Assembly (NCBI GenBank): GCA_016176465.1
Contig: JACOXD010000009.1
Span: 1 to 48,530 of the forward strand
From: Candidatus Daviesbacteria bacterium
GTDB lineage: Bacteria; Patescibacteriota; Microgenomatia; Daviesbacterales; UBA10151
DNA length: 48,530 bases
Direction: 5' to 3'
Shown: positions 4,506 through 28,143 of the stretch, one piece after another
Numbering within the stretch: the stretch's first letter is position 1
Layout: the number at the start of each line of letters is the position of its first letter
Notes under the pieces: generated by a model
What the model was told of the DNA's origin: nothing
The model's database searches: none
The model's input: the letters and a program-made list of their open reading frames with translations, nothing else
Program-made: the position numbers and the translations under genes

Positions 4506-4590
4506 TGTCATCCTGAGGCTCGGGCCCCTTTAGGGAAGAAGGATCTTTAGATTAGGTCTTTAGATTCTTCACTTTCAGTTCAGAATGACA
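4506..4590. repeat. Palindromic element family A (TGTCATCCTGA...TCAGAATGACA), intergenic in rpsB leader
   Basis: Terminal inverted repeats plus inner gaaggatct/agattcttc stem; other copies at 13032, 15563, 25627, 27501. Confidence 0.9.
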
Positions 4591-4600
4591 AGTTGCACTT

Positions 4601-5482
4601 ATGGCATTAAACGTACCTAGTATGCAAGATTTATTAACTGCAGGTGTTCATTTTGGACACCAAGTTCGCCGTGGACATCCCAGGATGTCTCAATTTGTTT
4701 ATGGAGCTAGGGATGGAGTCCAAATTATTGATTTGGCAAAAACTGAAAGCAAATTAAAAGAGGCTGCTGAGTTTGTTTATAATTTAGGAAAATCTGGTGG
4801 AGTATTACTTGTAGTTGGTACAAAAAAACAATCCAGAGAAATAGTAGAACAATTATCCAAAGAAGCGGATACTCCTTTTATGAATGATCATTGGGTAGGA
4901 GGCTTGCTAACTAATTTTGATGAGATTAAAAAAAATCTAAAGAGATTAAATGATTTAAAGGAGGAACAAGCAACAGGGTCACTTTCCAGGTATACCAAAA
5001 GAGAGCAACTCTTAATTGCCAGAAAATTGCAAAAATATGAGCGTGATTTTGGAGGAGTTGCTAACTTAGTCAAACTTCCAGATGCTTTATTTGTAATAGA
5101 TACTGTTTCAGATAATATTGCTGTTAAGGAGGCATCTGTCTTGGGGATTAAAGTTGTGGGTTTTGCTGATTCTAATTCTAATCCTGATTTGCTAGATTAC
5201 CCTATCCCTGCTAATGATGATGGAATTAAATCAATTAAAATAATTTCTGAAACTATTATTAAATCCTATGGGGAAGGCAAAAAGGTAGGAGGAGTAACTG
5301 TTGCTAAAGTAGAGGAAGCTAAATCTGAGAATGAGGCAACAAAAAAGGAGAAAAGTCCTTCGACTCAAAACGCTCAGGATAAAGAAGAAGCAAAATTAGA
5401 TGAGGCGGTAGCTGAGGAGGCAGCAGCAATAGAGGAAGTGGTGGAGAAAAAAGCAGTAGAGGAATCTGAGAGGAAAGTTTAA
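4601..5482 (+). CDS. rpsB: 30S ribosomal protein S2
   Basis: LLTAGVHFGH, IPANDD motifs; followed by tsf. Confidence 0.98.
   Translation: MALNVPSMQDLLTAGVHFGHQVRRGHPRMSQFVYGARDGVQIIDLAKTESKLKEAAEFVYNLGKSGGVLLVVGTKKQSREIVEQLSKEADTPFMNDHWVGGLLTNFDEIKKNLKRLNDLKEEQATGSLSRYTKREQLLIARKLQKYERDFGGVANLVKLPDALFVIDTVSDNIAVKEASVLGIKVVGFADSNSNPDLLDYPIPANDDGIKSIKIISETIIKSYGEGKKVGGVTVAKVEEAKSENEATKKEKSPSTQNAQDKEEAKLDEAVAEEAAAIEEVVEKKAVEESERKV
5356..5379 (+). repeat. Family B short palindrome in the rpsB C-terminal tail
   Basis: tccttcgactcaaaacgctcagga matches TCCTTCGAC..GCTCAGGA. Confidence 0.7.
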
Positions 5483-5487
5483 GGTAA

Positions 5488-5537
5488 GTTCTCGGCTACG
5501 CTCGAACAAAAAATTATCTTCGACCGAAGTGGAGAAG
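5488..5537. repeat. Inverted pair of 20-bp REP-like units between rpsB and tsf
   Basis: gttctcggctacgctcgaac versus the reverse complement of 5518-5537 (cttctccacttcggtcgaag), 14/20. Confidence 0.55.
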
Positions 5538-5548
5538 TACAAAATATT

Positions 5549-6874: not shown

Positions 6875-6878
6875 AATC

Positions 6879-8030: not shown

Positions 8031-8063
8031 ACATTTTGTTTTACTTCTTGTAACAATTAACTA

Positions 8064-8804: not shown

Positions 8805-8862
8805 TTTTAGGATTTGTGATATTATATGTTAAAGTCATTGATGGAGTTTCCCGCTCCATCAA

Positions 8863-8887
8863 TCCTCCGAAGCAATGCGTAGGAGGA
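8863..8887 (-). repeat. Family C palindrome inside the T-box leader
   Basis: tcctccgaagcaatgcgtaggagga; its reverse complement starts tcctcctacg, identical to dnaX 15639-15648. Confidence 0.6.
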
Positions 8888-12397: not shown

Positions 12398-12613
12398 ATC
12401 AAAAAATATATGTCAATTATCATTAAAGCTGGGCCAAATGATACATCTGATTCAGTAATTAGAAAATTCCAAAAAAGGGTTGCTTTGGAAGGAGTCATTC
12501 AAGAGTATCGTGAGATGGAGTTCCATAAAAAGAATTCGCTAAAGCGACAAGAACGTTTAGCAGAAAAAAGACGCAAAATTATGCGAGCCAAGCGCTACTT
12601 AGATGCAAAATAA
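12395..12613 (+). CDS. rpsU: 30S ribosomal protein bS21; start probably 12410
   Basis: DSVIRKFQKRV, EYREMEFHKK; followed by a YqeY-family gene. Confidence 0.85.
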   Translation: MIKKYMSIIIKAGPNDTSDSVIRKFQKRVALEGVIQEYREMEFHKKNSLKRQERLAEKRRKIMRAKRYLDAK

Positions 12614-13043
12614 AATCCAAGAAGATCTAAAACAAGCTCAACTAGATAGAAACGAACTTAAGGTTTCTACCTTAAGACTTTTATTATCTGAGGTTAATAA
12701 TGCTAAAATCCAAAAAGGTCAAGAGTTATCTGATGAGGAAATTACAGGAGTTATCCAGAAAGAGATTAAAAAAAGAAAAGAATCTATTGAAAGTTTTAGA
12801 AAAGGAGCAAGGGAAGATTTAGCTTTAAAAGAAGAAGCAGAGGCAAAAGTCTTGGAAAGCTACCTGCCAACTCAATTATCAGATGAGGAGTTGACTAAAA
12901 TAATAGATTTAGCTATAAATGAAGTAGGCGCAAATTCTATAGCAGATATGGGTAAAGTAATAGGCAAGGTCATGAGTCAAGTTTCAGGTAAGGCAGATGG
13001 TGGAAGAGTAAGTAATTTAGTAAAACAGAAGTTGTCATCCTGA
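12603..13043 (+). CDS. GatB/YqeY domain protein
   Basis: KEIKKRKESIESF, YLPTQLS, DMGKVIG, GKADG. Confidence 0.92.
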   Translation: MQNKIQEDLKQAQLDRNELKVSTLRLLLSEVNNAKIQKGQELSDEEITGVIQKEIKKRKESIESFRKGAREDLALKEEAEAKVLESYLPTQLSDEELTKIIDLAINEVGANSIADMGKVIGKVMSQVSGKADGGRVSNLVKQKLSS

Positions 13044-13110
13044 ACGCAAGTGAAGGATCTCAAGATCTAGATTCTTCCTCCCCTTTGGGGGCCCGGTTTC
13101 AGAATGACAA
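13032..13110. repeat. Family A palindromic element that supplies the yqeY stop codon
   Basis: ttgtcatcctgaa...ttcagaatgacaa; near-identical to the cysS copy at 25627. Confidence 0.9.
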
Positions 13111-13124
13111 TAATATTTATAAAA

Positions 13125-13541
13125 ATGATTAATATTATTGTAAATTGCGATCCAAGATACCCGGTCAATAAATTAGCTATTCAAGCAACTGTTGTTGAGA
13201 TTTTAAACCAGCAGAGAATCTCTGGTAATGTAGAGATTGGGATAAATATTGTGGGTGATCGCAAGATGCATGAGTTTAACAAAAAATATCGTGGCATTGA
13301 TGCAACCACCAATATTTTATCTTTTGCGCTGGAAGATCCAGCCTCCAGCAACCAGCTACAACATATACCCAGGATAGGTTTTGTTAAAGCTCCTGATAAA
13401 GTTTTAAGATTAGGAGATATTTTAATTTCTTACCCTCAAGTTATTAAGGATGCTTCTCAATCAGGTTCTTCAGTAGAGGAGGAAGTTAGATTTTTAGTTG
13501 AGCATGGGATGAAGCATCTTCTAGGAGTGCACCACGATTAA
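13125..13541 (+). CDS. ybeY: rRNA maturation RNase YbeY
   Basis: NKKYRGID.TTNILSF, LGDI, HGMKHLLGVHH; the 13104 ATG lies inside the repeat. Confidence 0.92.
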   Translation: MINIIVNCDPRYPVNKLAIQATVVEILNQQRISGNVEIGINIVGDRKMHEFNKKYRGIDATTNILSFALEDPASSNQLQHIPRIGFVKAPDKVLRLGDILISYPQVIKDASQSGSSVEEEVRFLVEHGMKHLLGVHHD

Positions 13542-13542
13542 G

Positions 13543-14088
13543 TTATTCTTCCAAAAGTTGCTTAACTTTTTGCCTATTGGCTCTATCTTGCTGCAAACGT
13601 GAAATAGCATTGGGAATAACTACTTCTTCAACGCCCCTTTTTAAAAATCTTAACAGGTCACTAATTTCATCTGGTTGGCTTAGTTCTTCTATTGCTTGTG
13701 ATGTAGTAGGTACAACTTCAATGGTTAAATGGACGCCTTGGGCATTCGCATCGATTAATGCAAAGGGTGGATGTAAGAGAAGCATACGTTCTCTCCTAAT
13801 TTCTTTAAACCACTCTGGTGCCCCATCAGAATCTAACATCGCTTGAACATAAAGCGTAGAAATTCCAGGTAAGTTATATAATTTCTCATAAAAGTCTTGC
13901 TCTAAAGGAGGGTTCCTTTGACCACTTTCTAAACGAGCAATTGTAGACTCAGTCATACCAAGTGTAGCAGCTACTTTTCTTTGACTTAAGCCTGCTACTT
14001 CGCGATAAAATCTAAGCATTCCACCAAATGCTTTTGCTCCGGGTGATACAAATTCATATTCTTGAGAAGGTTCTTTTCTTGGTCTCAT
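13543..14088 (-). CDS. XRE-family HTH transcriptional regulator
   Basis: LRFYREVAGLSQRKVAATLGMTESTIARLESGQRNP; TGcTATAAT 7 nt before ATG 14088. Confidence 0.8.
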   Translation of the reverse strand: MRPRKEPSQEYEFVSPGAKAFGGMLRFYREVAGLSQRKVAATLGMTESTIARLESGQRNPPLEQDFYEKLYNLPGISTLYVQAMLDSDGAPEWFKEIRRERMLLLHPPFALIDANAQGVHLTIEVVPTTSQAIEELSQPDEISDLLRFLKRGVEEVVIPNAISRLQQDRANRQKVKQLLEE

Positions 14089-14148
14089 GCTCTGAATTAT
14101 AGCAGGAGGATTTCCCATAGTAAACTATGATATTTCAATCTATCCTTC

Positions 14149-14348
14149 CAATCCCGGATTGTCAAGGTAATTCCAAACCGGGATTGTAGGTTCAGTCGTA
14201 TCTTGCATATTTTGATATCCCGATGTGTCATCTCACTTCCAACTCCGAGTTGTCAAGCTAAAGCAACAAGGTGACGATCCTATTACACCTTCCAGGTGAA
14301 ACAAGCTCGCGACCTGTTTAGCTGTCTAGCTAACCCACACCGGGTGTG
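14149..14348. repeat. Cluster of 13-bp palindromes, family D (CAnnn-NNN-nnnTG)
   Basis: caatcccggattg 14149, caaaccgggattg 14174, caactccgagttg 14240, caccttccaggtg 14286, cacaccgggtgtg 14336. Confidence 0.8.
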
Positions 14349-14456
14349 TGGTGCCACCGCATAACCACTATCTCTGCGATCATAATTCCTACATAATATA
14401 AGTTGGCATCTTCCCTAACTTTCATAATTTTGTTAATCTAAATTTACATCTTTGTT

Positions 14457-16124
14457 ATGGTTTTTTATAGAAAATACCGCCCTCAATCACTTAATGAACT
14501 AATTGGCCAAGAGCAGGTCAAGCTAACCCTCCAAAAAGCCTTTGATTCTCAAAAACTCTCTCATGCTTATTTATTTACTGGTCCTAAAGGAACTGGTAAA
14601 ACTTCTACAGCCAGGATTCTAGCTAAAATGGTTAATTGTGAGGGAGAAAAAATTGTTCCCTGTAATAAATGCTCCAGCTGTATTTCCATAACAGATGGAT
14701 CCAATTTGGACGTAATAGAAATTGATGCGGCTTCAAATAGAGGAATAGATGATATTAGGGACCTAAGAGAAAAAATTAAGCTTGCTCCAAGCTCTGCTAA
14801 TAAAAAAGTTTACATTATAGATGAAGTTCATATGTTATCTCCCGAAGCTTTTAATGCCCTACTTAAGACTTTAGAGGAACCCCCTTCCCATGTATTATTT
14901 ATATTAGCAACTACTGAATTGCATAAAATTCCTCCAACTATTTTATCCCGAGCACAAAAAATAGACTTTAAACAAGCAAGTACTCCAGAGCTTGTTGAAG
15001 CGTTAAAAAAAGTAGCAAATGGAGAAAAACTAAAGATAGAAGATAAAGCTTTGGAGCTTTTAGCTAAAAAAAGCGATGGATCTTTTAGGGATGGATTAAA
15101 ACTGCTAGATCAGCTTGCTTCAGGAGGCACTGATATTACCTCACTACAAGTTGAGGAAACTCTAAAAAGTTCTAATTTTGAAAGTATGGTGGAGCTTTTA
15201 TATGCAATTTCAAACAAGAGAAGCTCCAATGCTTTAAATATATGTTTGGAACAAATTGAGAAAGGAATAAATATTAGAGAATATACACTTGGAATTTTAG
15301 ATTTAATCCATGCCTTATTACTTATTAAAAATGACCTTAAAAATAAAGTATTAGAAGAATTTGGCTCTGAAAAGTTGGAAAAAATTAGTAAACTATCTGA
15401 TGGGTTTGAGATAAGGGATTTAATTAAATTGGCTGATAATTTTCAAAAAAGCTTAGAAAAAATGAAAGCTGTCAGTATCACTTCACTGCCTTTAGAAATT
15501 GCGGTGATTGAGAGCTCTCAAGCAGAAGTAGTAACTCCTGTCACAGTGAACACAGCCCCTCATGTCATTCTGAGCGAAAGCGAAGAATCTAGATTAGATC
15601 CTTCTGGTCCGGTGGACACTCAGGATGACAAAAGAAAGTCCTCCTACGTCAAGGTCATCGACTCTGAGGCCGAGCCTCAGGTCTTCGATTCCGAGGTCTC
15701 TCAGACTCGAGGAGCTCACACCCGAAGGGATTACAAACAAAAACCTTCCATATCCGCTATGAAAGCCTCTTCGGGAGATTTGGCAACTTTATATGATAAG
15801 TGGAATTATATTTTGGAAACAGTTAAACCTTATAATTATTCTTTGGAGGCAATGTTAAGGTTGGTAAAAATTTTAGAATGTAATCAAGAAGAGGTCATAT
15901 TTGAGGTTCCTTATTCTTTTCACCAAAGGATATTAGAAGCACCAAAAAGTAGAACTTTACTTGAATCTGTTCTAACAGAGGTTTTGGGAAGATCTATGAA
16001 GGTATCAACTGTTTTAGGTAAACGCGAAGTTCAAACTGAGGATATTGCCAACATTGAAGTCGCAGCTGATGATGAAATAATTAAAATTGCTGCAGAAATT
16101 TTTAACTCAGAATCGGTTAATTAA
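14457..16124 (+). CDS. dnaX: DNA polymerase III subunit gamma/tau
   Basis: YRKYRP, GPKGTGKT, EIDAASNRG, IIDEVHML, LLKTLEEPP. Confidence 0.97.
   Translation: MVFYRKYRPQSLNELIGQEQVKLTLQKAFDSQKLSHAYLFTGPKGTGKTSTARILAKMVNCEGEKIVPCNKCSSCISITDGSNLDVIEIDAASNRGIDDIRDLREKIKLAPSSANKKVYIIDEVHMLSPEAFNALLKTLEEPPSHVLFILATTELHKIPPTILSRAQKIDFKQASTPELVEALKKVANGEKLKIEDKALELLAKKSDGSFRDGLKLLDQLASGGTDITSLQVEETLKSSNFESMVELLYAISNKRSSNALNICLEQIEKGINIREYTLGILDLIHALLLIKNDLKNKVLEEFGSEKLEKISKLSDGFEIRDLIKLADNFQKSLEKMKAVSITSLPLEIAVIESSQAEVVTPVTVNTAPHVILSESEESRLDPSGPVDTQDDKRKSSYVKVIDSEAEPQVFDSEVSQTRGAHTRRDYKQKPSISAMKASSGDLATLYDKWNYILETVKPYNYSLEAMLRLVKILECNQEEVIFEVPYSFHQRILEAPKSRTLLESVLTEVLGRSMKVSTVLGKREVQTEDIANIEVAADDEIIKIAAEIFNSESVN
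15563..15630. repeat. Family A element in frame in the dnaX linker
   Basis: tgtcattctgag...ctcaggatgaca; encodes VILSESEESRLDPSGPVDTQDD. Confidence 0.9.
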
Positions 16125-16179
16125 CTTTAAAATCCTCCTTGACACAAATTAATCCTTTTAGTTAAAGTGATCTCTGTTT

Positions 16180-17499: not shown

Positions 17500-17768
17500 A
17501 GTTTTGGAGGATTTGGGGCCGGCAAGACTACATCTACTGTTGAGCCTTCAGGTCTATGATTAACAATAATAGCTGTGGCTGGGATACCTCTTCTTGAAAG
17601 TTCTTGAAGAATAGCTGCATTTCTATCTGCTCTATTAAGAGAATCTTGGGCGTCTCCTTCAGATCTTGCCCCATGAACAATTCCCGTAACTGCATCCCTT
17701 GGTAAGGATTCATCGGATCGAGCTATGTGAACTATTGGTCCAGCGCGCTCTGCTTCTATTCTTTCCAT
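17496..17768 (-). CDS. Hypothetical protein
   Basis: ORF fills the glyA-folD gap; TGtTATACT precedes ATG 17768. Confidence 0.5.
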   Translation of the reverse strand: MERIEAERAGPIVHIARSDESLPRDAVTGIVHGARSEGDAQDSLNRADRNAAILQELSRRGIPATAIIVNHRPEGSTVDVVLPAPNPPKL

Positions 17769-17842
17769 AGATTCGAAGAAGTATAACATCTAAATATACT
17801 ATGTCAAATCGATTTAGTTTAGTTGTATTATAAAAACTAGTT

Positions 17843-18724
17843 ATGAAAGTATCAGGTAGAGATTTGGCAGATAAAATTTTAGAAAAATTAAAGCTAGAGA
17901 TTAAAGGTAAAAATCTAACTCTCTGTTTGGCGATAATTTTAGCAAGTAATGATCCAGCTCCTAAAATGTATACCCAAAGAAAAATAAATGTGGCGGGAGA
18001 AATAGGGATTAAAGCAACTTTATATGAATTTTCAGAAAACCAAGGACAAGATTGTTTTGAAACTATCCAACAGTTAAATGAAGATCAAAATATTCATGGG
18101 ATAATTGTTCAGCAACCAATGCATACTGGTTGGGATTTCCAAAAATATATTCAAGTAGTTTCTTCAAAAAAAGATGTAGATGGTTTTAAAGAGGATTCTC
18201 CATATAAGGAAGCAACAGCACTGGGGGTTTGGGAGATGTTATCTGAGTTTGGGAGAATTGAGGGTTTCAAATCAACTGATGAATTTTTAGAGGGGAAAAA
18301 AATAGTAGTTTTAGGAAAGGGTTTAACAGCAGGAAAACCCACAATTAATTTACTAACAGAAAAAGGTTTTCCACCTGAAGTAATAGATTCTAAAACTGAA
18401 AATCCAAATCAGATTATTAAAAATGCAGATGTAGTAATTTCTGCAACAGGCAAAAAAAATATTATTAATGGGGGAAATATAAAAAAGGGAAGCTTTGTAA
18501 TAGGGATAGGAGTTGGGAAGGAAGAAAAAGATGGAGAGGAAAGGATTTTTGGGGATATTAATGAGGAGGAAATAAAAGATATTGCTAAGTTATATTGTCC
18601 GACAATAGGAGGAATTGGACCACTAACTATAGCTTGTTTACTAAAGAACGTAATGGAAGCAAGCTTCACGGCTCAGGGTCCTGTCAGCTCGGTATCTCAA
18701 AGCCGTTCCTCAACTCAAGCTTGA
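17843..18724 (+). CDS. folD: Methylenetetrahydrofolate dehydrogenase/cyclohydrolase
   Basis: HGIIVQQP, KDVDGF, GGIGPLTIA. Confidence 0.92.
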   Translation: MKVSGRDLADKILEKLKLEIKGKNLTLCLAIILASNDPAPKMYTQRKINVAGEIGIKATLYEFSENQGQDCFETIQQLNEDQNIHGIIVQQPMHTGWDFQKYIQVVSSKKDVDGFKEDSPYKEATALGVWEMLSEFGRIEGFKSTDEFLEGKKIVVLGKGLTAGKPTINLLTEKGFPPEVIDSKTENPNQIIKNADVVISATGKKNIINGGNIKKGSFVIGIGVGKEEKDGEERIFGDINEEEIKDIAKLYCPTIGGIGPLTIACLLKNVMEASFTAQGPVSSVSQSRSSTQA

Positions 18725-18791
18725 TTTTCTAAAAATCAATGCAAGTCTGTGGTACGTTTTGAGACCTCTCCTCCCTGCCACCCACCTCGCC
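18670..18791. repeat. About 120-nt GC-rich imperfect hairpin across the folD stop
   Basis: ttgatttt/aaaatcaa inner stem, tctcaaa/tttgaga middle stem, gggt/accc outer stem. Confidence 0.6.
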
Positions 18792-18794
18792 TAC

Positions 18795-18830
18795 TTGACT
18801 CTAGACTCTAGCGACTAGTCACTATATAAT
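18795..18830 (+). promoter_or_regulatory. Sigma70-like promoter with heptamer repeats in the spacer
   Basis: TTGACT 18795, TAGACT 18802, TATAAT 18825; ATG 7 nt later. Confidence 0.6.
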
Positions 18831-18837
18831 ACCAACC

Positions 18838-19110
18838 ATGGGTTTAATGGATACATTTAAACAGCTTGGGGATCTCAAAAAGATGAGAGATCAAGCTATG
18901 GAAGTGCAAAAAAAATTATCAGGAATAAAAATAACTGTAGAGCATAGAGGGGTAACAGTTATAATGACTGCAGATCAAAAAGTTGTTTCTATTTCAGGTG
19001 AGTTAGATCATGAGAAAATTGCAGAAGCTGTTAATGAAGGATTAAAACAATCTCAAAAAGTTGCAGCTGAAGAAATGAAATCTTTAATGGGTGGCGTGCC
19101 AGGAATGTAG
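18838..19110 (+). CDS. ybaB: YbaB/EbfC nucleoid-associated protein
   Basis: QAMEVQKKL, IAEAVNEGL; lies between dnaX and recR. Confidence 0.85.
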   Translation: MGLMDTFKQLGDLKKMRDQAMEVQKKLSGIKITVEHRGVTVIMTADQKVVSISGELDHEKIAEAVNEGLKQSQKVAAEEMKSLMGGVPGM

Positions 19111-19833
19111 CTACCACTGGCAGTCTGCTGCAAAATTTACATTTCCTAATAAATTATTTAAAGTAGGAGTCCCATTGGTAAATGGTGCTGAGTAAAATCT
19201 CATTTCATAATTTGAGCCTAGTGTGCTACTAAGTTGTAAATTTCCCTGGCCTCTAATTCCTCCAACATGATCATTATATGCTCCTCCCACATCTACTGAG
19301 TTGGGATAATTACCTGACTGATAAAGGAAATAAAATGGTGAAGGATTTCCTCCTGATATGATTCCCCAAACCCCATCATCATATGCTTTAGTTTTAACAG
19401 AACCATGGAATTCAATATCAAAAGTACTTTCTCCGTGATAACAGCTAACGGTTAGGGTCACATGATCTCCGTTATAAGCATAAAAAGGTGCTGAACTTGG
19501 AGTAGGAGTGGGGGTGGGAGAAGGAGAGGGTGCAGGGGTTGAATTAGTCGAGTTATTATTTTGGCTCGTAGAAGAATTATTGTTAGCTGATGGGGAGGGA
19601 CTTGGATTAGACTTAGAAGTTGCGCTGGGTGAAGGGGAAGTTTTTAGAGATAAATTATTTGTAGGTGATGGAGAAGGTGAGGATTTTTGTTTAGTAGATG
19701 AAGTTGCTTGAAAACCTTTGTCAGGAGTTGGCTGCCCTCCATTGAGAGGTATTTTATTTAATATAAAAAACCCACTTCCCAATAGCAATAAGCATAACAA
19801 CAATTGGAGCAACACCCTTTTGATTGTTATCAA
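19111..19833 (-). CDS. Membrane-anchored Ser/Pro/Thr-rich hypothetical protein
   Basis: N-terminal hydrophobic helix, SPSP linker, beta-rich C-terminus. Confidence 0.65.
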   Translation of the reverse strand: MITIKRVLLQLLLCLLLLGSGFFILNKIPLNGGQPTPDKGFQATSSTKQKSSPSPSPTNNLSLKTSPSPSATSKSNPSPSPSANNNSSTSQNNNSTNSTPAPSPSPTPTPTPSSAPFYAYNGDHVTLTVSCYHGESTFDIEFHGSVKTKAYDDGVWGIISGGNPSPFYFLYQSGNYPNSVDVGGAYNDHVGGIRGQGNLQLSSTLGSNYEMRFYSAPFTNGTPTLNNLLGNVNFAADCQW

Positions 19834-19916
19834 GACTGAGTGTAGTCGAATTGGGCATTAAATTAAGAATAGGTTAGTGTTTAAATAATATCAACAATAA
19901 TAATCGATATTACCCC

Positions 19917-19952
19917 GGTAACAAATTAATCTACGTGGTTTAAATTGTTACA
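19917..19952. repeat. 36-bp dyad site U2, upstream of PaaX/Cas2-like gene 2
   Basis: ggtaacaaattaatctacgtggtttaaattgttaca. Confidence 0.88.
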
Positions 19953-19981
19953 TAGGATGGTAAAATGAATTACAAATAATT

Positions 19982-20563
19982 GTGACTGAGAAACAAAAAG
20001 ATATAGCTAAAAATATTATATTGGCTCTTGGGATAGTTGGAGCAGTATCTATGATAATGATAGCCCCTGGACTAGCTAAAGCGATACCCTTACTTGCAAA
20101 AATTGATGTTAGACGAATCAACCAAGAAATAAAAAGGCTAAATAAACGAGGACTTGTGGAGATTATTAAAAGAAAAAATAAGGTACCTTTAATTAAACTG
20201 ACTAAAGAAGGAGAAAAGAAATTATCAAGATACCAAATCGATAAGTTAGAAATTGAGAGGCCAAAAAAATGGGATGGAAAATGGAGACTGGTGGTGTTTG
20301 ATATCCCTATAACTAAAAACTATTCCAGAGCAGTACTTCGCAAAAAGATGAAAAATCTTGGGTTTTATAAATTACAGTCGAGTGTGTTTGTCCACCCCTT
20401 TCCATGTTTTGAAGTATTGAAATTTATAAGGGATTATTTTGGAGTTAGCAAAGAGGTGGAGTATATGGAAGTTAATAGTTTGGAAAGTCAAGACATGTTA
20501 ATATCTTACTTTTTTACGAAACAAATTAATCTACGTAGAACAAATTGTCACAATTTCAGATAA
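19982..20563 (+). CDS. PaaX-like protein (wHTH plus Cas2-like fold), copy 2
   Basis: LTKEG; WDGKWRLVVFDIP, LGFYKLQSSVFVHPFPC. Confidence 0.82.
   Translation: MTEKQKDIAKNIILALGIVGAVSMIMIAPGLAKAIPLLAKIDVRRINQEIKRLNKRGLVEIIKRKNKVPLIKLTKEGEKKLSRYQIDKLEIERPKKWDGKWRLVVFDIPITKNYSRAVLRKKMKNLGFYKLQSSVFVHPFPCFEVLKFIRDYFGVSKEVEYMEVNSLESQDMLISYFFTKQINLRRTNCHNFR
20517..20552. repeat. 36-bp dyad site D2, overlapping the 3' end of gene 2
   Basis: cgaaacaaattaatctacgtagaacaaattgtcaca; 29/36 identical to U2, direct orientation. Confidence 0.88.
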
Positions 20564-20611
20564 CATATATTTGTATAGTGCATAATAAGAAGAATTTGAT
20601 AGAATGCTACC

Positions 20612-21208
20612 ATGGCCACTATCCCCAAAGTTGTTAGAGATTTAATAGAAAGTTTTGAAAGGTTACCGGGTATAGGGCCTAAAACTGCGCAAAGATTAAC
20701 TTACTATTTACTCCATGCTCCAAAAGAAGAAGCAAAAGCGCTAGCTGAGGCTGCAGTTGCTTTAAAAGAAAAAACTGTGATTTGTTCAATTTGTTTTAAT
20801 ATCTCTGAGAAAGATCCTTGTGAAATAGATACAGATCCAAGTAGGGATAAATCTATTATAGCAGTGGTGGAAGATCCATTAGATGTTTTGGCTTTAGAGA
20901 AAGCAAATTTTAAAGGGCTTTATCATGTATTACACGGTGCAATTTCTCCTTTAGAAAATATTGGGCCAGAAGAATTAAAAATTAGGGAGTTATTACCTAG
21001 GTTAAAAGATAGAGCAGTTAAAGAAATTATTTTAGCAACAAACCCTACAATGGAGGGTGAGGCAACTGCAATGTATATAGATAGATTAATTAGACCCTTA
21101 GGAATAAAAGTAACCAGAATTGCCAGAGGCTTACCTGTTGGGGGAGATTTAGAATATGCGGATGAAACCACTTTATCAAGAGCCCTAGAAGGTCGTAAAG
21201 AATATTAA
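20612..21208 (+). CDS. recR: Recombination mediator RecR
   Basis: [36 protein letters not shown]. Confidence 0.98.
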
Positions 21209-21706
21209 ATGGATGAAGAAATTGATATTGTAGATGAGCTGGGAAATATTCTATATTCCATCTCCAAAATAGAGGCTCATAAAAAAGGATTACTTCATAA
21301 AACTGTTATTGCAGAAGTAATAGATTCAAAGGGTAATATTTATTTAGTAAAACAATCCTCAGATAGGCAAGATGCAGGGCAATATGTATCCCCAGTGGGT
21401 GGACATGTTAAAAAGGGAGAAACTGAGGAGGAAGCACTAGTAAGGGAGGTTTTAGAGGAAATAGGTTTAACTGATTTTGAATATGAGTTACTTGGAAGAG
21501 AAATTTTTAATAGGGAAGTTTTAGGTAGAATTGAAAACCACTTTTTTATTGTTTTTAAAATTACAACAGATAAAGAATTTATTTTAGGAGATGAGGCAGA
21601 TGATTTTGAAAAATTTAACAAAGAACAACTAATAAAAGAAGTAATGATAAATCCCAAGAAATTTGGTAATGTCTTTCACTTTGTCTTTGAAAAATTTTAC
21701 AAATAA
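21209..21706 (+). CDS. NUDIX hydrolase (IPP isomerase-like)
   Basis: GGHVKKGETEEEALVREVLEEIG Nudix box; AHKKGLLH. Confidence 0.88.
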   Translation: MDEEIDIVDELGNILYSISKIEAHKKGLLHKTVIAEVIDSKGNIYLVKQSSDRQDAGQYVSPVGGHVKKGETEEEALVREVLEEIGLTDFEYELLGREIFNREVLGRIENHFFIVFKITTDKEFILGDEADDFEKFNKEQLIKEVMINPKKFGNVFHFVFEKFYK

Positions 21707-21709
21707 TAA

Positions 21710-23005
21710 ATGCTAAAAACTTTTACTCTAAAAAATGGGATCAAGGTTGCTACTTATAACCTTCCTAATGTCAAATCTATTCACATTAGAATAAGTTCTA
21801 AAGGTGGATCTATTGTTGAGAGTAAAGTAAATAATGGTGTTGCTCATTTTATGGAACATATTTTAGTTCAAGGTACTCCTTCTTATCCTACAGTTGAGGA
21901 TTTATCTTTATTTATAGAAAGTTTAGCAGGTAACTATAATGCTCAAACTGAAAAACTTTTAATTAGTTTCTTTATAACAACTCCTGCAACTCATATTGAG
22001 GATGCTATCAAAATAACCAAGGAAGTATTTTTTGATCCTTTATTTGCCAAAGATGCAATTGAGCGGGAGCGGGGAGCGCTACTTAATGAAATAAAACAAA
22101 ACATGGATTCTCACTATTTTGAATTAAATAGATATTTTTGGGAGACAAGAGTCAAGAAGGAACACCCCCTAACGCTTTTTACAGGCGGGGCATTAGATGT
22201 AGTTTCAAAATTAACAAGAGATGACTTAGTAAATTATTGGCAAAAGTATTTTCTATCTAAAAATAGCTATCTTTTAATTTCTGGTAATTTTGAAGAGAAA
22301 AAATTAATCAAACTTTTGGAAAAATACTTTGAAAGTATAGATTCTAAAAAGGTCTTTAGTGGATTTCCTAAAATGTCTGATTTAGATTTATCTGAAAAAG
22401 AAGTTTTTATCAGGTTTGATCAAAAGCTTGGGATTAATTATATAGATATAACTTGGCCCTCCATAAAAATGGAAGACACTTTAAAATTAAGGTTGATTCA
22501 AAATTTGGCTCTAACTATTTTAGGTGGTTTAAGAAACTCCAGATTGTTTAAACTACTACGCTCTCAGAGAGGTTTGGTTTACTCCATTGGATCTAGTGCT
22601 TCAATTTTGCCTGGCTTGGGACTAGGGTATATCTCCTCACAGGTGACTAGTGAGAACTTAGTTGAAGTATTAGATCTTACTTTTAAAGAACTTTTTACTT
22701 TTGTTCATAATGGACCAACTGATGAAGAATTAAGTTTTGCTAAGAATTATTTATCAAACCAATGGTTTATGGCATTTGATCACCCATCAGTTATAGCTGA
22801 GTGGATTGAGAATGATTTGCACTGGAATGACAAAATAAGGTTGCCTGAGCAGTATTTAGAGATACTGAAAGAAATTAAAAAAGAAGATCTACTTAAGTTA
22901 ATGCAAAAATACTGGGATTTTGCTAAGCTCAATTTAGTAATCCAAGGACAAATTGAAGATTCTAAAGAAAATAGAGAAAAATATATGGAGTATTTAAATT
23001 TGTAA
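21710..23005 (+). CDS. M16 (pitrilysin/insulinase) zinc peptidase
   Basis: GVAHFMEH (HxxEH), SRLF.LR..RGLVY. Confidence 0.92.
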   Translation: MLKTFTLKNGIKVATYNLPNVKSIHIRISSKGGSIVESKVNNGVAHFMEHILVQGTPSYPTVEDLSLFIESLAGNYNAQTEKLLISFFITTPATHIEDAIKITKEVFFDPLFAKDAIERERGALLNEIKQNMDSHYFELNRYFWETRVKKEHPLTLFTGGALDVVSKLTRDDLVNYWQKYFLSKNSYLLISGNFEEKKLIKLLEKYFESIDSKKVFSGFPKMSDLDLSEKEVFIRFDQKLGINYIDITWPSIKMEDTLKLRLIQNLALTILGGLRNSRLFKLLRSQRGLVYSIGSSASILPGLGLGYISSQVTSENLVEVLDLTFKELFTFVHNGPTDEELSFAKNYLSNQWFMAFDHPSVIAEWIENDLHWNDKIRLPEQYLEILKEIKKEDLLKLMQKYWDFAKLNLVIQGQIEDSKENREKYMEYLNL

Positions 23006-23008
23006 ATT

Positions 23009-23434
23009 ATGGGAGATGGAGCAAAGGGTGCGATAAAAGGAGTAATGAAAGATTTGGGAGAGGCTGTTGTTAAACCTGTGGCTAATGAGGCATCCACCAT
23101 AATTAATGAAACCATCCAGTCAATTTCTGGTGGTGGAAGTACTCAAAATCCTCAGGACGAACATAAGAAAAAAGAGGAAGAACAAAAATTAAAAGTTGAA
23201 GAAGCAAATAAAAAAAGAAACATTGAGATGTTTTTAAGGCAACTGCAAGAACAAGAACAAAAATTAAAAGCTACCCGCCAAAAGGAAGCTCAAGAAAAAC
23301 AAGCAAAAGAACAAGAGGAGCAACAAAAAAAACAAGTTAAACAATTTAAAGTATTTGAACAACAAAAGAAAAAACAAGATATTAATTTAGCAACTAAACA
23401 GCGAAAGACAGAAATAAAAAGAGGAAGTGCCTAA
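23009..23434 (+). CDS. Lys/Gln/Glu-rich coiled-coil hypothetical protein
   Basis: 141-aa ORF in operon spacing. Confidence 0.6.
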   Translation: MGDGAKGAIKGVMKDLGEAVVKPVANEASTIINETIQSISGGGSTQNPQDEHKKKEEEQKLKVEEANKKRNIEMFLRQLQEQEQKLKATRQKEAQEKQAKEQEEQQKKQVKQFKVFEQQKKKQDINLATKQRKTEIKRGSA

Positions 23435-23470
23435 TTGGCTTATTAATCCCTTATTTGATAAAATCCTAAC

Positions 23471-23740
23471 ATGGAAAAGGCAGATGATCCAGAACTTGAA
23501 CTATATAAAGAAATAGGGGCTTTACCTTCAAATCAACAAAGGCTTATTAGTGCTTTATCAAGCCATCTATTAGAACGAGATGTACATGAAAGTTTTGCAA
23601 CTGATCCTTTAAAATATCAGGCATTAAAAAAACTTCTAATTTCCAGAGGGTTTGATGAGAAAGGTTTAGTGCTGGCAATGCGAGTTTTTGGGCTAGAAGA
23701 AATTTCTGCGGAACCACCTGATAGACCAAATTTGCCCTAA
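23471..23740 (+). CDS. Small hypothetical protein, possible Fic antitoxin
   Basis: Own TGaTAAAAT promoter; ends 3 nt before the fic gene; SHLLER. Confidence 0.55.
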   Translation: MEKADDPELELYKEIGALPSNQQRLISALSSHLLERDVHESFATDPLKYQALKKLLISRGFDEKGLVLAMRVFGLEEISAEPPDRPNLP

Positions 23741-23743
23741 AAT

Positions 23744-24598
23744 ATGGTTAAAGCTCCTGAAGAAATATTGTCTGGTGCGCTACGAGCAAATGAATTTGAT
23801 CCTGATATATTTCATTCCTTCCAGGAAATAGGCAATGTTTACCGATGTGTTACTATTGAAGACTCTTGGCTAAAAGATAGAGTTACGCCCGGCATCCTTT
23901 ATATTTCCGAACTTCACGCTAAATTATTTGATAGAGTTCCAACCTATTACAAAAAAGGTCTACTCCCCCTTCCTCCGGGAACTTTTAGAAGAGAAGATAT
24001 CTATCTATCCAGCCAACCCCCAAACTTTTACTCTCGGGGACTGGATGTATCTCCGTTAATGGACGAATATGCCCGAGAGCTTGATAAAATAATAGAATCT
24101 CTACCACGAAGCCCCCTGGATAAAATTGAAGATATAATCCATCAAGGTGCTTGGAGTTATTATGTCTTTGAAAGGATCCACCCGTTTTTGGATGGGAATG
24201 GGAGAATTGGCAGAATGATTCTAAGAAGAATTCTAAGGGGAACCGGGTTAAAAGATATTATCTTTAGTGCTGCTTCAACTCCCAAAGGCTCCAAAAGGAG
24301 TGAAGAAGAACGGAACAAACATTTAGATGCAATGAGTAGGGTTAGCTCAACTGGCAATTTAGCTCATTTAGAATTATATATTGCTAGACAACTACTCAAA
24401 GTATATCCAAATTCAGGTGAAAACAAAGGGGTTGTGGCCGAATTACAAGGTTTGATAGATAAAAAAACAATGGAGGTGGAAACTCAGACAGCAAGATTGC
24501 CTTTGGAGAAGATTTGGCCAAAATTTGGAGATATTGATATTCATGGCAGCGAGGATGATTTAAAAACTCCAGCTGAAACAAGCTCTATTAGTAATTAA
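23744..24598 (+). CDS. Fic-domain protein
   Basis: HPFLDGNGRIGR canonical Fic motif. Confidence 0.92.
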   Translation: MVKAPEEILSGALRANEFDPDIFHSFQEIGNVYRCVTIEDSWLKDRVTPGILYISELHAKLFDRVPTYYKKGLLPLPPGTFRREDIYLSSQPPNFYSRGLDVSPLMDEYARELDKIIESLPRSPLDKIEDIIHQGAWSYYVFERIHPFLDGNGRIGRMILRRILRGTGLKDIIFSAASTPKGSKRSEEERNKHLDAMSRVSSTGNLAHLELYIARQLLKVYPNSGENKGVVAELQGLIDKKTMEVETQTARLPLEKIWPKFGDIDIHGSEDDLKTPAETSSISN

Positions 24599-24607
24599 AC
24601 TTGATTA

Positions 24608-26029
24608 ATGCTCAAATTATTTAACACTCTTTCTAAAAAAATAGAAGACTTTAATCCTCTAACTTCTGAGCAAGTGGGTCTTTATACTTGTGGCCCCACT
24701 GTGTATGATTTTATGCACATTGGCAACTTAAGGACTTTTTTATTTTCTGATACTTTATATCGGGTCTTAAGCGCTAATGGATATAAAGTAAAGTTTATCC
24801 AAAATATTACTGATATTGATGACAAAATTATTAAAAAAGCAAAAGAAGAAAACATACCATTAAGCGAAATAACTAATAAATACACAAAATTTTATTTTGA
24901 AGATTTAAAAAAACTAAATATCACTCCAGCAGATGTTTACCCAAAAGCAACTGAGCACGTTGGGAAGATGGCCAAGTATATTGAGAAATTAGTAGAAAAA
25001 GGGCTAGCTTATGTAGAAGAGGATGGATCAGTTTATTTTGATATTTCTAAATTTGAAGATTATGGAAAACTATCAGGAGTAGAGGGTCGGACCCTCAAAA
25101 CCGGAACAAGGATTTTATCTCGCGCAGCGAGAGAGCTTCGCTCATCTGATGAGTACAATAAAGATAATATTCAAGATTTTGCGCTTTGGAAGGCTGTTGA
25201 AGCAGATGAGAAAGTAGGCTATGATTCTCCGTGGGGAAGAGGAAGACCAGGATGGCATATTGAGTGTTCAGTTATGAGTCAGGAATATTTAGGGGATACT
25301 TTTGATATTCACGCAGGAGGAGTGGATTTAATTTTTCCCCATCATGAAAATGAGATTGCTCAGTCCGAAGGTTATACTGGTAAAAAATTTGTAAATTTCT
25401 TTTTACATGGTGAACATATTTTGGTTAATGGAGCCAAGATGAGCAAATCTTTAAAAAACTTTTACACACTAAAAGATTTAGAAAAGAAAGGGTCGGACCC
25501 TATGGCCTATAGGTACTTAGTTTTAACTGCTCACTATAGAGATAAACTAAATTTTACTTGGGAAAGTTTGCAAGCTGCAAGCAATGCTTTAAATAAACTA
25601 AGGGAGGAGATAAGGGGGTGGCCTAATGTCATCCTGAATGCAAATAAAGGATCTCAAGATTTAGATTCTTCTCCCCTCTGGGGGCCTTCGGCTCAGAATG
25701 ACAATTATTATCAAAGATTCCTAGATGTTTTAAATAATGATTTAAATACACCCCAAGCTTTAGCAGTTCTCCATGAGATGATTTCATCAAATAGTCCAAT
25801 ATCTAACAAAGCTAAATCACTTCTAGAGATGGATAAAGTTTTAGGGTTAAAGTTAGATGAATATTTAGGAAAGAAATTAGAAATCCCTGAGAGGGTTAAA
25901 AAGTTAGTTGAGGAAAGAGAAGATGCAAGAAAGCAAGGCAATTTTGAAAAATCTGATGAACTTAGAAAAAAAATTATAGAGTTGGGTTTTGAAATAAAAG
26001 ATACCCCAAAGGGCCCCAAAATTACATAG
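24608..26029 (+). CDS. cysS: Cysteine--tRNA ligase
   Basis: CGPTVYD, HIGN, GRPGWHIECS, KMSKS. Confidence 0.98.
   Translation: MLKLFNTLSKKIEDFNPLTSEQVGLYTCGPTVYDFMHIGNLRTFLFSDTLYRVLSANGYKVKFIQNITDIDDKIIKKAKEENIPLSEITNKYTKFYFEDLKKLNITPADVYPKATEHVGKMAKYIEKLVEKGLAYVEEDGSVYFDISKFEDYGKLSGVEGRTLKTGTRILSRAARELRSSDEYNKDNIQDFALWKAVEADEKVGYDSPWGRGRPGWHIECSVMSQEYLGDTFDIHAGGVDLIFPHHENEIAQSEGYTGKKFVNFFLHGEHILVNGAKMSKSLKNFYTLKDLEKKGSDPMAYRYLVLTAHYRDKLNFTWESLQAASNALNKLREEIRGWPNVILNANKGSQDLDSSPLWGPSAQNDNYYQRFLDVLNNDLNTPQALAVLHEMISSNSPISNKAKSLLEMDKVLGLKLDEYLGKKLEIPERVKKLVEEREDARKQGNFEKSDELRKKIIELGFEIKDTPKGPKIT
25082..25096. repeat. Family E palindrome AGGGTCGGACCCT (copy 1, in cysS)
   Basis: gagggtcggaccctc; the same 13-mer occurs at 25489 and, reverse-complemented, at 36144. 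Confidence 0.75.
25489..25501. repeat. Family E palindrome (copy 2, in cysS)
   Basis: agggtcggaccct. Confidence 0.75.
25627..25703. repeat. Family A element in frame in cysS
   Basis: tgtcatcctgaa...tcagaatgaca; encodes VILNANKGSQDLDSSPLWGPSAQND. Confidence 0.9.
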
Positions 26030-26038
26030 GTCCGAGAA

Positions 26039-26773
26039 TTGATTGACTTAGCTATGTCGGATTTGTTATTTGAGATTAAATTCAGAAGTGATTATAGACA
26101 CCCTCGTACACCGGAAGATAATGTTTGGTTGGAAAAAGTAAATAACCAACTGAAAAGAGGTAGGACTTACACATATAGCTCTCCTACAGAAAGAACAGCT
26201 GATCAAGGTGCAATGGTTGCGGCGGCAAAAGCAATGATGTTACATAGGAGAGAATTAAAAATTCCAGAGTGGGCAGCGACCGATGCCCGAAGGTTACTTG
26301 TTGCCGACTATGGCATTACCGGTGCAATTCCTCAGGGAGGAGTAGGCTCGATTATCTTTGATGAGGAATTAGGGAGGTGTGTTGACCTTGAGCATAAAGG
26401 GATCAGCATTCAAGGTACAGTAGAAGAGTATTATTCAAGGAATTGGGATAATGATCTGGCAAAATTTCAACCCCCAAAATTAAAAGGAAAAAGACACATA
26501 AGGTTAGGAGATTTTATTGATATAATCCAAGCTGCAATTATTTATCAATATTCCAATGGGCAGGAAGAGTCAGCAAAGATTGAGGAGATTTGCATGCAAC
26601 CATTACTTTTGGCCGGGTTAGATGTTGAAAAAGTACCTTTAATATTTGGTTTTGTTAGAGAACTTAAAACATGGCAGGCAATAGCTTCCTCTACCGAAGT
26701 GGTTATTCCTCAGACTCGACCACTCTCAATGCTTAGAGTGGAAAATTTTATATTAGCAAAAAGGGTGAGTTGA
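26039..26773 (+). CDS. Hypothetical protein, start uncertain
   Basis: 244-aa ORF; no motif recognised. Confidence 0.6.
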   Translation: MIDLAMSDLLFEIKFRSDYRHPRTPEDNVWLEKVNNQLKRGRTYTYSSPTERTADQGAMVAAAKAMMLHRRELKIPEWAATDARRLLVADYGITGAIPQGGVGSIIFDEELGRCVDLEHKGISIQGTVEEYYSRNWDNDLAKFQPPKLKGKRHIRLGDFIDIIQAAIIYQYSNGQEESAKIEEICMQPLLLAGLDVEKVPLIFGFVRELKTWQAIASSTEVVIPQTRPLSMLRVENFILAKRVS

Positions 26774-26838
26774 TCTTCGTCTAAATTTCGGCTAAGATTT
26801 TAATCTAGAGATTCTTTGCTAGAATGCTCAGAATGAAA

Positions 26839-28143
26839 ATGAATAATTCTCCTTTAGCAGATAGGATTAGACCCAAAAGTTTAGATCAATTAGTTGGCCA
26901 AAGACACATTCTTTCTCCTGATAAATTACTTTACAAAGCTATAAAATCAGGCAATATTTTCTCAATGATTTTTTGGGGACCACCAGGGGTTGGAAAGACA
27001 ACTTTGGCAAGAATAATAGCGAACGAGCTAAAAACAGAATTTTATGAATACTCCGCAGTAACAACTGGAATTGTGGAACTTAAAAAATTATTCGAATCTC
27101 TAAAAAATTCCATCCTCTTAAATCCACCCGTAGTTTTTATAGATGAAATCCACAGATTTAATAAAGCACAGCAAGATGCATTTTTGCCGTATGTAGAAAA
27201 CGGGACAATTATTTTAATAGGAGCAACAACAGAAAACCCTTCCTTTGAAGTTATTGGCCCACTCTTATCCAGAACAAGAGTATTTGTTTTAAATCAATTA
27301 TCAAATAAAGAGTTGGAAGAAATAATAAACAAAGCGCTTAAAGATAAGCGAAGCTTTCCTTCACTTAGCAGTGAACGTAAAGAATCTGGTTTAGGAAAAC
27401 TAAAAATAAAACTTAATAAAGATGCAAAAGATTTTTTAATTGAAGGGTCTAATGGAGATTCAAGAATTTTGTTAAATGCTTTGGAGGTAGCAGTTAATTC
27501 TGTCATCCTGAGGGCACGGGCCCCTTTTAGGGAGGAAGGATCTCAAAATTTAGATTCTTCTGGTCCACTGGACCATCAGAATGACAAGGTTGTGGTAATC
27601 AAAGAATTAATTGAAGAAGCTTTGCAGAAGCGCTCATTACTTTATGATAAAGCAGGAGATGAGCACTACAATACAATTTCAGCATTTATAAAATCTATGA
27701 GAGCATCACAAGTAGATTCTGCACTATATTATTTAGCCAGGATGGTAAATGCAGGAGAGGATCCTTTGTTTATTGCCAGAAGAATGGTTATTTTTGCCAG
27801 TGAGGATATTGGACAGGCAGCGCCTACAGCTTTGGTTGTAGCTAATGAAGTTTTTAGAGCTGTAGAGACAATTGGATATCCTGAGTGTCAAATTAATTTA
27901 GCCGCAGGTGTCGTTTATTTATGCAGCGCTAAAAAAGATAGAAGTTCATATGATGCATATTTTAAAGCGCTAGAAGATGTACAAAAATTTGGCAATTTAG
28001 AAATTCCCCTTAATATTAGAAACGCTCCTACAAAATTAATGAAAGATTTGGGTTACGGCAAAGGTTATGAAAAATATTCCAAAGAAGACTTACTTCCTGA
28101 AAAATTAAAAGGGAAAAAATATTATGCAAGCAAAAAGGAATAG
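26839..28143 (+). CDS. rarA: Replication-associated recombination protein A (MgsA/RarA AAA+ ATPase)
   Basis: PLADRIRP, GPPGVGKTT, DEIHRFNKAQQD, ISAFIKSMR, SEDIG. Confidence 0.96.
   Translation: MNNSPLADRIRPKSLDQLVGQRHILSPDKLLYKAIKSGNIFSMIFWGPPGVGKTTLARIIANELKTEFYEYSAVTTGIVELKKLFESLKNSILLNPPVVFIDEIHRFNKAQQDAFLPYVENGTIILIGATTENPSFEVIGPLLSRTRVFVLNQLSNKELEEIINKALKDKRSFPSLSSERKESGLGKLKIKLNKDAKDFLIEGSNGDSRILLNALEVAVNSVILRARAPFREEGSQNLDSSGPLDHQNDKVVVIKELIEEALQKRSLLYDKAGDEHYNTISAFIKSMRASQVDSALYYLARMVNAGEDPLFIARRMVIFASEDIGQAAPTALVVANEVFRAVETIGYPECQINLAAGVVYLCSAKKDRSSYDAYFKALEDVQKFGNLEIPLNIRNAPTKLMKDLGYGKGYEKYSKEDLLPEKLKGKKYYASKKE
27501..27586. repeat. Family A element in frame in rarA
   Basis: tgtcatcctgag...tcagaatgaca; encodes VILRARAPFREEGSQNLDSSGPLDHQND. 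Confidence 0.9.

Follow-up and report, generated by a model that had tools for sequence, protein, structure and literature searches.

The locus examined here raises the question of how one short palindromic sequence came to recur both between and inside unrelated core genes of a 1-Mb bacterial genome, and which enzyme could have spread it. The window, a stretch of 48,530 nucleotides, is contig C12 of a Candidatus Daviesbacteria assembly (GCA_016176465.1, here G000; 1,072,413 bases, 18 contigs, ~35% G+C, 93.8% complete) and holds five copies of an element type that we refer to as family A. The copies are most probably derivatives without an open reading frame (ORF), similar to miniature inverted-repeat transposable elements (MITEs), of a selfish unit composed of a hairpin, an Ssn-type GIY-YIG nuclease gene and a second, inverted hairpin. 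Judged by sequence, the architecture is that of the NTS/SRM–Ssn system of Chenal et al. 2025 (PMC11893778) and of the CGTC/TGTC-tagged dimers of repetitive extragenic palindromes (REPs) of Di Nocera et al. 2013 (PMC3733652). Family A is a new subtype, with a new host range, of this known system.

A strict pattern for the element, GTCATYCTGA-N40-70-TCAGRATGAC, matches the window five times (match lengths of 83, 75, 66, 75 and 84 bp) and has 0 matches in each of 100 dinucleotide shuffles. All five copies had been reported in an earlier note, made by a model from the letters of the sequence, and their starts lie within 1–2 nt of those given there (Table 1). That note had also placed three copies in frame in DnaX, CysRS and RarA, which the NCBIfam gene names (dnaX, cysS and RarA-type AAA ATPase) and the translations confirm: the in-frame peptides are VILSESEESRLDPSGPVDTQDD in dnaX, VILNANKGSQDLDSSPLWGPSAQND in cysS and VILRARAPFREEGSQNLDSSGPLDHQND in rarA, all of the form VIL...Q(N/D)D. 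A non-autonomous element that resembles the Rickettsia palindromic elements (RPEs) and sits in frame in core genes, as the note had it, is thus supported. Rfam gave nothing at gathering score in the window and nothing at E up to 1 within positions 25500–27700, and a tRNA scan of the window found none.

Across the G000 genome the strict pattern identifies 39 copies, and a relaxed search that allows one mismatch per anchor gives 48 full copies (96 halves) as well as 38 unpaired half matches, some of which are at chance level. The repeat unit is the half, which consists of (T)GTCATYCTGA, a variable mini-hairpin of 7–31 nt and then GAAGRAT(C). A full copy is two halves placed head to head, with one hairpin at the 5′ end of either DNA strand. 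The stem of a half, ATYCT/AGRAT, has five Watson–Crick pairs and is extended by two G·A pairs (ATYCTGA/GAAGRAT). GTCAT is part of the search motif, so the tag and the AT start of the stem are not independent evidence; the base preceding GTCAT lies outside every search motif and is T at 88 of the 96 ends.

In 94 of the 96 halves a T–A or C–G pair links the Y at position 6 with the R of the inner motif, and 46 of the 48 copies combine one T/A half with one C/G half. Because of this mixed pairing, the ‘terminal’ and ‘inner’ stems that could be drawn across a whole copy each carry a fixed T·G or C·A mismatch (46/48 copies at the terminal stem, with the inner stem likewise mismatched). The sequence covariation points to conservation of one independent hairpin in each half and does not favour the constant terminal and inner stems that had been described before. 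Energy minimization of whole elements as single-stranded DNA (ssDNA) does draw a cloverleaf with such stems, at energies 0.4 to 3.3 standard deviations better than shuffles; we set this fold aside on the covariation (94/96 pairings within the half compared with a mismatch across 46/48 copies), although energy alone draws it.

The mini-hairpins belong to recurring types (among them GCGAAGC-like, GGGCAAAGCCC, TGGTCCACTGGACCA, a long GGGCCCC...GGGAGG and TCAGGCGAAGCCTGA), and each type is seen with T/A as well as with C/G stems and in many pairings among the 48 copies. The module swap claimed for the rarA copy, which has the left mini-hairpin of the copy at 4507 and the right mini-hairpin of the dnaX copy, is therefore real and general, and the shuffling fits recombination between copies. 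The closest pair in the genome is the rarA copy and a copy at G000:C5:74136-74215 (94% identity); the median identity of the 48 copies is 71%. Separately, some elements are directly bordered by tandem extra copies of the terminal 10-mer without the rest of the element (left, GTCATCCTGA; right, TCAGAATGAC), spaced 18–22 nt apart and with as many as three in succession (Table 1). These look like stutter at element ends, or like repeated partial insertion.

The enzyme that the earlier note had placed outside the window has a candidate on another contig of the same genome, of the GIY-YIG type that the note had given among its examples. G000 has nine GIY-YIG matches, seven of them small ORFs, and one of these, a 97-amino-acid ORF on contig C13, is bracketed exactly by two halves, GTCATTTCGA...GAGAAATC on its left and ...TCGAGATGAC on its right; compensating changes set their stems (ATTTCGA/GAGAAAT, ATCTCGA) apart from those of family A. 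The protein exceeds the Pfam cut-off for GIY-YIG and has no other domain, is 57% identical to the protein of a related genome (G001) whose gene has the NTS-consensus flank described below and has UPF0213 proteins as its best PDB matches (E 6e-8). Used as a query, it gives 32 matches at E 2e-22 or better, set apart from weaker GIY-YIG matches. Taking the best locus per genome in 20 genomes (G000 and 19 relatives), we found a GTCAT-tagged hairpin on both sides, inverted, of 19 of the 20 Ssn-like genes. The same nesting of a single-domain GIY-YIG gene of ~95 amino acids occurs in G018, G020 and G027 and in one metagenome-assembled genome of the Omnitrophota.

The flank stems of the Ssn-like loci covary from locus to locus (ATTCCCGCG, ATTGCGA, ATGCTGAA, ATCCCTGG and others), and at five loci (L217, L220, L229, L233 and L234) the halves are of family-A type. 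Two of these, L233 and L234, have a C/G half upstream and a T/A half downstream, the same mixed pair as in 46 of the 48 G000 copies. Of the 28 positions of the published NTS consensus of Neisseria, 27 are matched by the flank of the Ssn-like gene of G001. Viewed from the elements, a small GIY-YIG gene lies within 100 nt of 3 of the 38 strict copies in relatives, compared with a rough chance expectation of ~0.1, and a GIY-YIG gene lies within 300 nt in 1 of the 127 listed loci of other phyla (L042), counted over short flanks. The check suggested earlier, to see which nuclease or transposase gene is flanked by copies, thus leads to a GIY-YIG gene and to no Y1 gene. On the simplest reading of these sequences, the ORF-less copies would descend from a gene-bearing unit by gene loss. 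The part of the earlier claim that concerned an enzyme outside the window has gained this candidate; its mobilization of the copies in trans is something that we infer by analogy with Ssn nucleases. Three further small GIY-YIG genes of G000 belong to a different subfamily and adjoin tRNA-Glu, tRNA-Gln and tRNA-Ser, with no family-A half beside them (Table 1).

The comparison with described systems is close at the level of architecture. Chenal et al. (PMC11893778) report the NTS hairpin of Neisseria, related SRM hairpins in many bacteria and the nuclease SsnA, a single-domain GIY-YIG protein of 94 amino acids whose binding to the folded motif is restricted to ssDNA; the Ssn nucleases of Neisseria and Wolbachia cut ssDNA a few bases upstream of the motif, the family is assigned to CDD cd10448 (GIY-YIG_unchar_3), and the authors liken the NTS-ssnA-NTS arrangement to an insertion sequence. 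Family A shares with NTS/SRM the directional hairpins, an unpaired tag, (C/T)GTC, a stem that begins with AT and ends in ...GAATCYRG, a GIY-YIG gene of ~95 amino acids flanked on both sides by inverted copies, many copies per genome and presence in many phyla. It differs in the CTGA/GAAG extension of the stem and the second, variable mini-hairpin, in being found nearly always as head-to-head doublets (one T/A and one C/G half in G000), in being intragenic in 19 of 48 copies (~40%) compared with 2% reported for N. meningitidis, and in its host, a groundwater bacterium with a small genome. The search string published for SRM, HGTCWYN(0-2)YYVSBRHN(0-5)WNVSBRGN(0-2)RNCYNB, was built from 29 genomes of 4 phyla; on the whole G000 genome it gives 5 matches, compared with 1–2 in each of 5 mononucleotide shuffles. 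The word ‘Patescibacteria’ occurs nowhere in the main text or text supplements of PMC11893778, and GTCATTCTGAG and GTCATCCTGAG are absent from its text supplements.

The CGTC/TGTC-tagged REPs (PMC3733652) are mostly head-to-head dimers, were described from 5 phyla and include Neisseria dRS3 as well as two Rickettsia elements (RPE-6 is CGTC-1 and RPE-4 is CGTC-4). Intragenic dimers encode 20–30 residues, often in replication and repair genes, and the authors state that these REPs have ‘apparently no dedicated transposase’. Family A resembles them in its TGTC tag (88/96 ends), the AT start of the stem and the head-to-head dimers (48 doublets compared with 38 unpaired halves). Its stem, however, is interrupted and holds a nested hairpin of 7–31 nt, and its tail is C-T-A/C..., whereas CGTC-1 to CGTC-4 have stems of 8–9 bp, loops of 4–5 nt and a CCA tail; family A fits none of the four in stem and loop sizes. 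Kinship with the Rickettsia elements, beyond analogy, is probable, a link that rests on the equation of RPE-4 and RPE-6 with CGTC families in PMC3733652.

Two other comparisons are instructive. REPs, their doublets (REPINs) and the REP-associated tyrosine transposases (RAYTs) show a parallel layout, with inverted hairpin units, many non-autonomous copies and an ssDNA-specific enzyme encoded between two units, but with a GTAG tag and a Y1/HUH enzyme where family A has a TGTC tag and a GIY-YIG gene. RPE-1, attributed to Ogata and colleagues in 2000, is said to comprise in-frame, stop-free palindromic inserts of ~100–150 bp in essential genes, reportedly tolerated in surface regions. By that description, it resembles family A in being an in-frame, stop-free palindromic insert in intact genes (3 copies in the window, 19/48 in the genome) and differs in being longer. 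In the literature, with subscription journals outside the search, no paper linking RPEs or in-gene copies to Ssn came up. The papers listed from full-text searches with four terminal 10-mers were all unrelated primer and vector papers; literature on GIY-YIG with miniature inverted repeats yielded none on bacteria; none combined the Rickettsia palindromes with GIY-YIG; and a search for SsnA, GIY-YIG and single-stranded from 2024 on returned only Chenal et al. 2025.

Why the three window copies share a reading frame can be answered from the genome-wide set. Counting ORFs that reach at least 40 codons on both sides of the element, 19 of the 48 full copies are intragenic, with frame 1 used by 12 and frame 3 by 7; the statement that the element is always read in the same frame therefore holds for the three window copies and not for the family. 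Both termini contain a TGA (left, G-TCA-TYC-TGA; right, TCA-GRA-TGA-C). With a length divisible by three these TGAs close two frames, and the sole open frame reads VIL...Q(N/D)D; all 10 in-ORF copies of such lengths are in frame 1. Seven of the nine in-ORF copies of other lengths are in frame 3, where they read (C/R/T)H(S/P/F)E..., the other two are in frame 1, and four of the nine exit as ...LRMT. All 19 use a frame that is free of a terminal TGA for their own length class. Because the TGAs leave precisely those frames open, and because the length is divisible by three in only 5 of the 29 copies outside ORFs, the shared frame is a survival filter and not a property of insertion. Gene-borne copies would persist only if they add a multiple of three bases, are read in the TGA-free frame and fall in a permissive loop, and the VIL...Q(N/D)D reading of the three window copies would arise because only copies of this kind persist.

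The hosts are ordinary genes. Outside the window, Pfam domains span both sides of the insert in 14 of 15 host ORFs, which encode a UvrD helicase, the beta and gamma subunits of ATP synthase, a Mur ligase, an amidohydrolase, a glycosyltransferase, three TPR proteins, TatD, DNA polymerase I, an ATP-grasp/citrate-binding enzyme, YchF and PurH. The ortholog alignment proposed in the earlier note places the inserts as additions. The closest CysRS ortholog (G001, 76% identity) is without the 25 residues, and in most others the linker is shorter and unrelated; most RarA orthologs bridge the ...LE(V/I)A... helix to the next conserved block with 3–10 unrelated residues; and DnaX orthologs lose alignment at about residues 355–430, a linker that spans the copy. 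Orthologs carrying the same peptides without the palindrome had been named as the outcome that would speak against an insertion, and the inserts are instead missing from the closest orthologs. In an AlphaFold2 model of CysRS built with 28 orthologs (mean predicted local distance difference test score, pLDDT, 87.6), the insert models as a disordered loop: residues 344–360 have pLDDT below 50 and sit between confident helices at 318–335 and 366–376.

The rarA site is occupied by a different copy in two other genera. The copy in G024 is 56 nt long and is read in another frame as CHSERSEESRDPSAKPQDD (CHSERSEES...PQDD), and the site in G028 (L164) holds a variant family of the GTCATSCTGAACTTGTTTCAGSATC type, read ...RHAELVSAS.... 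Such occupancy reflects either an early insertion, overwritten in the meantime, or a preference for this site (a hotspot). In protein alignments, the cysS products of G018, G003, G011 and G019 (L130, L137, L140 and L141) have a linker of 10–20 residues ending ...NLQND or similar; these linkers could be decayed element copies. Single contigs from groundwater (four DNA runs of two studies, covering 12500–28200) span the copies at 13034, 15564 and 25628 and show no differences, although the best-matching run is possibly the sample of origin, so that the bridging contigs are not independent support. No empty-site allele was found, and none of the 15 joints listed skips exactly one element (55 further joints lie outside this listing).

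The element is distributed well beyond this genome. With the same 28 conserved bases it occurs in 15 of 41 related genomes, and named genomes of many phyla add more than 127 loci; among the matches listed are Acidobacteriota, Omnitrophota, Patescibacteria, Bacteroidota, Bacillota, Chloroflexota, Planctomycetota and Pseudomonadota. Mixed T/A and C/G pairs make up 50 of the 108 matches listed from this wider sample, which shows that the half types pair nearly at random there. Summed contig depth in the four groundwater runs is 35–3047 at the element cores (positions 13047 and 15577) and roughly 3–40 in the surrounding 500-base bins; the same core is therefore present on contigs from many other organisms in those samples.

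If the copies are derivatives of an Ssn-type unit, the nuclease would nick each strand just outside the doublet when the DNA is single-stranded, for example during replication, repair or uptake, as extrapolated from the cutting reported in PMC11893778, and repair or copying would then spread and mix the hairpins. The single, variant-flanked Ssn-like gene of G000, or another gene missing from the 93.8%-complete assembly, would serve all 48 copies. A further step, that the hairpin/ssn/hairpin unit of ~0.4 kb is a true autonomous mobile element and that the ORF-less doublets are MITEs colonizing coding sequence at scale in ultra-small bacteria, we put forward tentatively and think rather doubtful. 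If it were true, a hydrolytic nuclease of 95 residues, specific for ssDNA, would drive insertion by an undescribed route, for example nick-primed copying or fork repair, and the polarity of the element would stem from the T/C difference of one base between its two ends.

Several observations weigh against the derivation of the copies from an Ssn-type unit. GIY-YIG nucleases are not known to transfer strands, so that insertion of a new copy by such an enzyme is hard to account for. No two of the 48 copies are identical, so recent movement in G000 is unsupported, and a target-site duplication is absent from 37 of the 48 copies, with none consistent across the set. No nuclease gene found in G000 (at 93.8% completeness) has canonical family-A flanks, and a canonical terminus lies within 200 nt of 0 of its 7 small GIY-YIG genes; the sole close Ssn-like gene has variant flanks and may or may not act on the 48 copies. 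For this gene product, NCBIfam returned one weak, sub-threshold match to a group-I-intron endonuclease and PADLOC returned no match. Across the 41 genomes, of which 40 have GIY-YIG and 34 have Y1_Tnp, the presence of neither tracks the presence of the element. Finally, the published SRM string matches 0 of the 96 family-A halves. Because that string was derived from 29 genomes of 4 phyla, the failure points to a subtype outside the sampled genomes and is no proof of a different kind of element; surveys built on the string consequently undercount such hairpins.

Other explanations fare less well. The inverted-doublet layout resembles REPINs, and such doublets might be mobilized by a RAYT: G000 has 12 Y1_Tnp matches, 11 of them full-length, mutually diverged paralogs of 209–252 amino acids with HUH and Y motifs, and of the 15 genomes, out of 41 searched, in which the element occurs, 14 have Y1 genes. 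Such genes are also present in 20 of the 26 element-free genomes, however, and G033 has three copies of the element and no Y1 match (at 81% completeness). Within G000 a terminal 10-mer, with at most one mismatch, lies within 1.7 kb of 0 of the 12 Y1 genes and within 2.5 kb of one only. As the tag is TGTC and not GTAG, and the gene between the halves encodes a GIY-YIG and not a Y1 protein, we consider a Y1-driven origin unlikely.

The copies might instead be host-functional structured sequences under selection (terminators, mRNA stabilizers, protein-binding sites or peptide linkers) and not selfish DNA, as could be argued from the conservation of the motif across many phyla, from the two intergenic window copies, where a hairpin could act on transcripts, and from the view of Di Nocera et al. 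(PMC3733652) that many REPs function as RNA elements. Such functions sit poorly with copies at unrelated places in at least 15 unrelated core proteins and in spacers, with closest orthologs that manage without the inserts, with an encoded CysRS peptide that is predicted to be disordered, and with the use of the same halves to bracket a nuclease gene (19/20); no Rfam family matches positions 25500–27700 even at E up to 1, and the five window copies, folded on the + strand as ssDNA, are only 0.4 to 2.6 standard deviations better than shuffles. We regard a host function as the origin of the copies as quite improbable. Least credible, to the point that we give it almost no weight, is that the in-gene segments are ancestral linker peptides with incidental DNA palindromy. 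The related inserts of three genera at the rarA site would suit it, but they differ in length, mini-hairpins and reading frame (the G024 copy has 56 nt), the same DNA is found in spacers and in many phyla, and the ortholog alignments, in which the closest relatives lack the inserts, already contradict it.

Descent from an Ssn-type unit, by comparison, would link RPE-type in-frame inserts, the enzyme-less CGTC/TGTC-tagged REPs of 2013 and the Ssn nucleases of 2025 through one set of loci. With ~40% of its copies inside essential genes of a 1-Mb genome, family A offers a natural test bed for the spread of recognition hairpins and the shaping of protein linkers.

The termini of the element also affect the annotation of neighbouring genes, which NCBIfam identifies in the window as rpsB, a YqeY/GatB-like gene and ybeY. 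The TGA at 13041–13043, in the left terminus of the copy at 13034, is the stop codon of the YqeY/GatB-like ORF (12603–13043), as had been claimed, and the first ATG of the ybeY ORF (13104–13106) lies inside the right terminus of the same copy, a point absent from the earlier note; the true ybeY start may be the ATG at 13125. The degenerate right half that the note had located near 26809–26837 is real in sequence; more precisely, it is an unpaired half in minus-strand orientation. Within its span falls the first ATG of the rarA ORF (26824–26826), the true start of which may be the ATG at 26833 or 26839. Termini that supply stop and start codons in this way can mislead gene callers, and over-extended genes are possible.

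Table 1. Coordinates of family-A copies in the window and of related features elsewhere (C, contig of G000 unless another genome is given; L, locus).
Feature	Position	Strand	Context
Full element	4507..4589	.	Intergenic, 12 nt upstream of the rpsB start (4601); C/G-type half first on the + strand
Full element	13034..13108	.	Between the YqeY/GatB-like ORF and ybeY
Full element	15564..15629	+	In frame in dnaX, residues 370-391; T/A-type half first
Full element	25628..25702	+	In frame in cysS, residues 341-365
Full element	27502..27585	+	In frame in the RarA-type AAA ATPase gene, residues 227-254
Degenerate solo half	26811..26837	-	TTCATTCTGA, mini-hairpin, AAAGAAT; 2 mismatches to the search motifs
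GIY-YIG ORF, 97 amino acids	C13:128141-128431		Between a left and a right half
Copy at the rarA site of G024 (L160)	G024:C1:953802-953857		In rarA
Small GIY-YIG gene (L197-L199)	C13:125118-125324		Beside a tRNA gene
Small GIY-YIG gene (L197-L199)	C10:21223-21429		Beside a tRNA gene
Small GIY-YIG gene (L197-L199)	C7:6604-6804		Beside a tRNA gene
Tandem terminal 10-mers	C13:122278-122383		
Tandem terminal 10-mers	C13:140311-140438		
Tandem terminal 10-mers	C13:140828-140938		
Tandem terminal 10-mers	C5:154705-154801		
Tandem terminal 10-mers	C5:52981-53095		
Tandem terminal 10-mers	L190:448-620		
Tandem terminal 10-mers	L190:936-1120		
Y1/HUH paralog	C15:5830		
Y1/HUH paralog	C13:86252		
Y1/HUH paralog	C15:55065		
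Y1/HUH paralog	C4:28754		
Y1/HUH paralog	C9:18210		
Y1/HUH paralog	C2:37156		
Y1/HUH paralog	C13:110915		
Y1/HUH paralog	C15:20662		
Y1/HUH paralog	C13:103409		
Y1/HUH paralog	C9:51888		
Y1/HUH paralog	C9:2568		

No family-A copy lies near any of the Y1/HUH paralogs of G000, three of which have the palindrome CACCTGAAAGGTG in common in their flanks.

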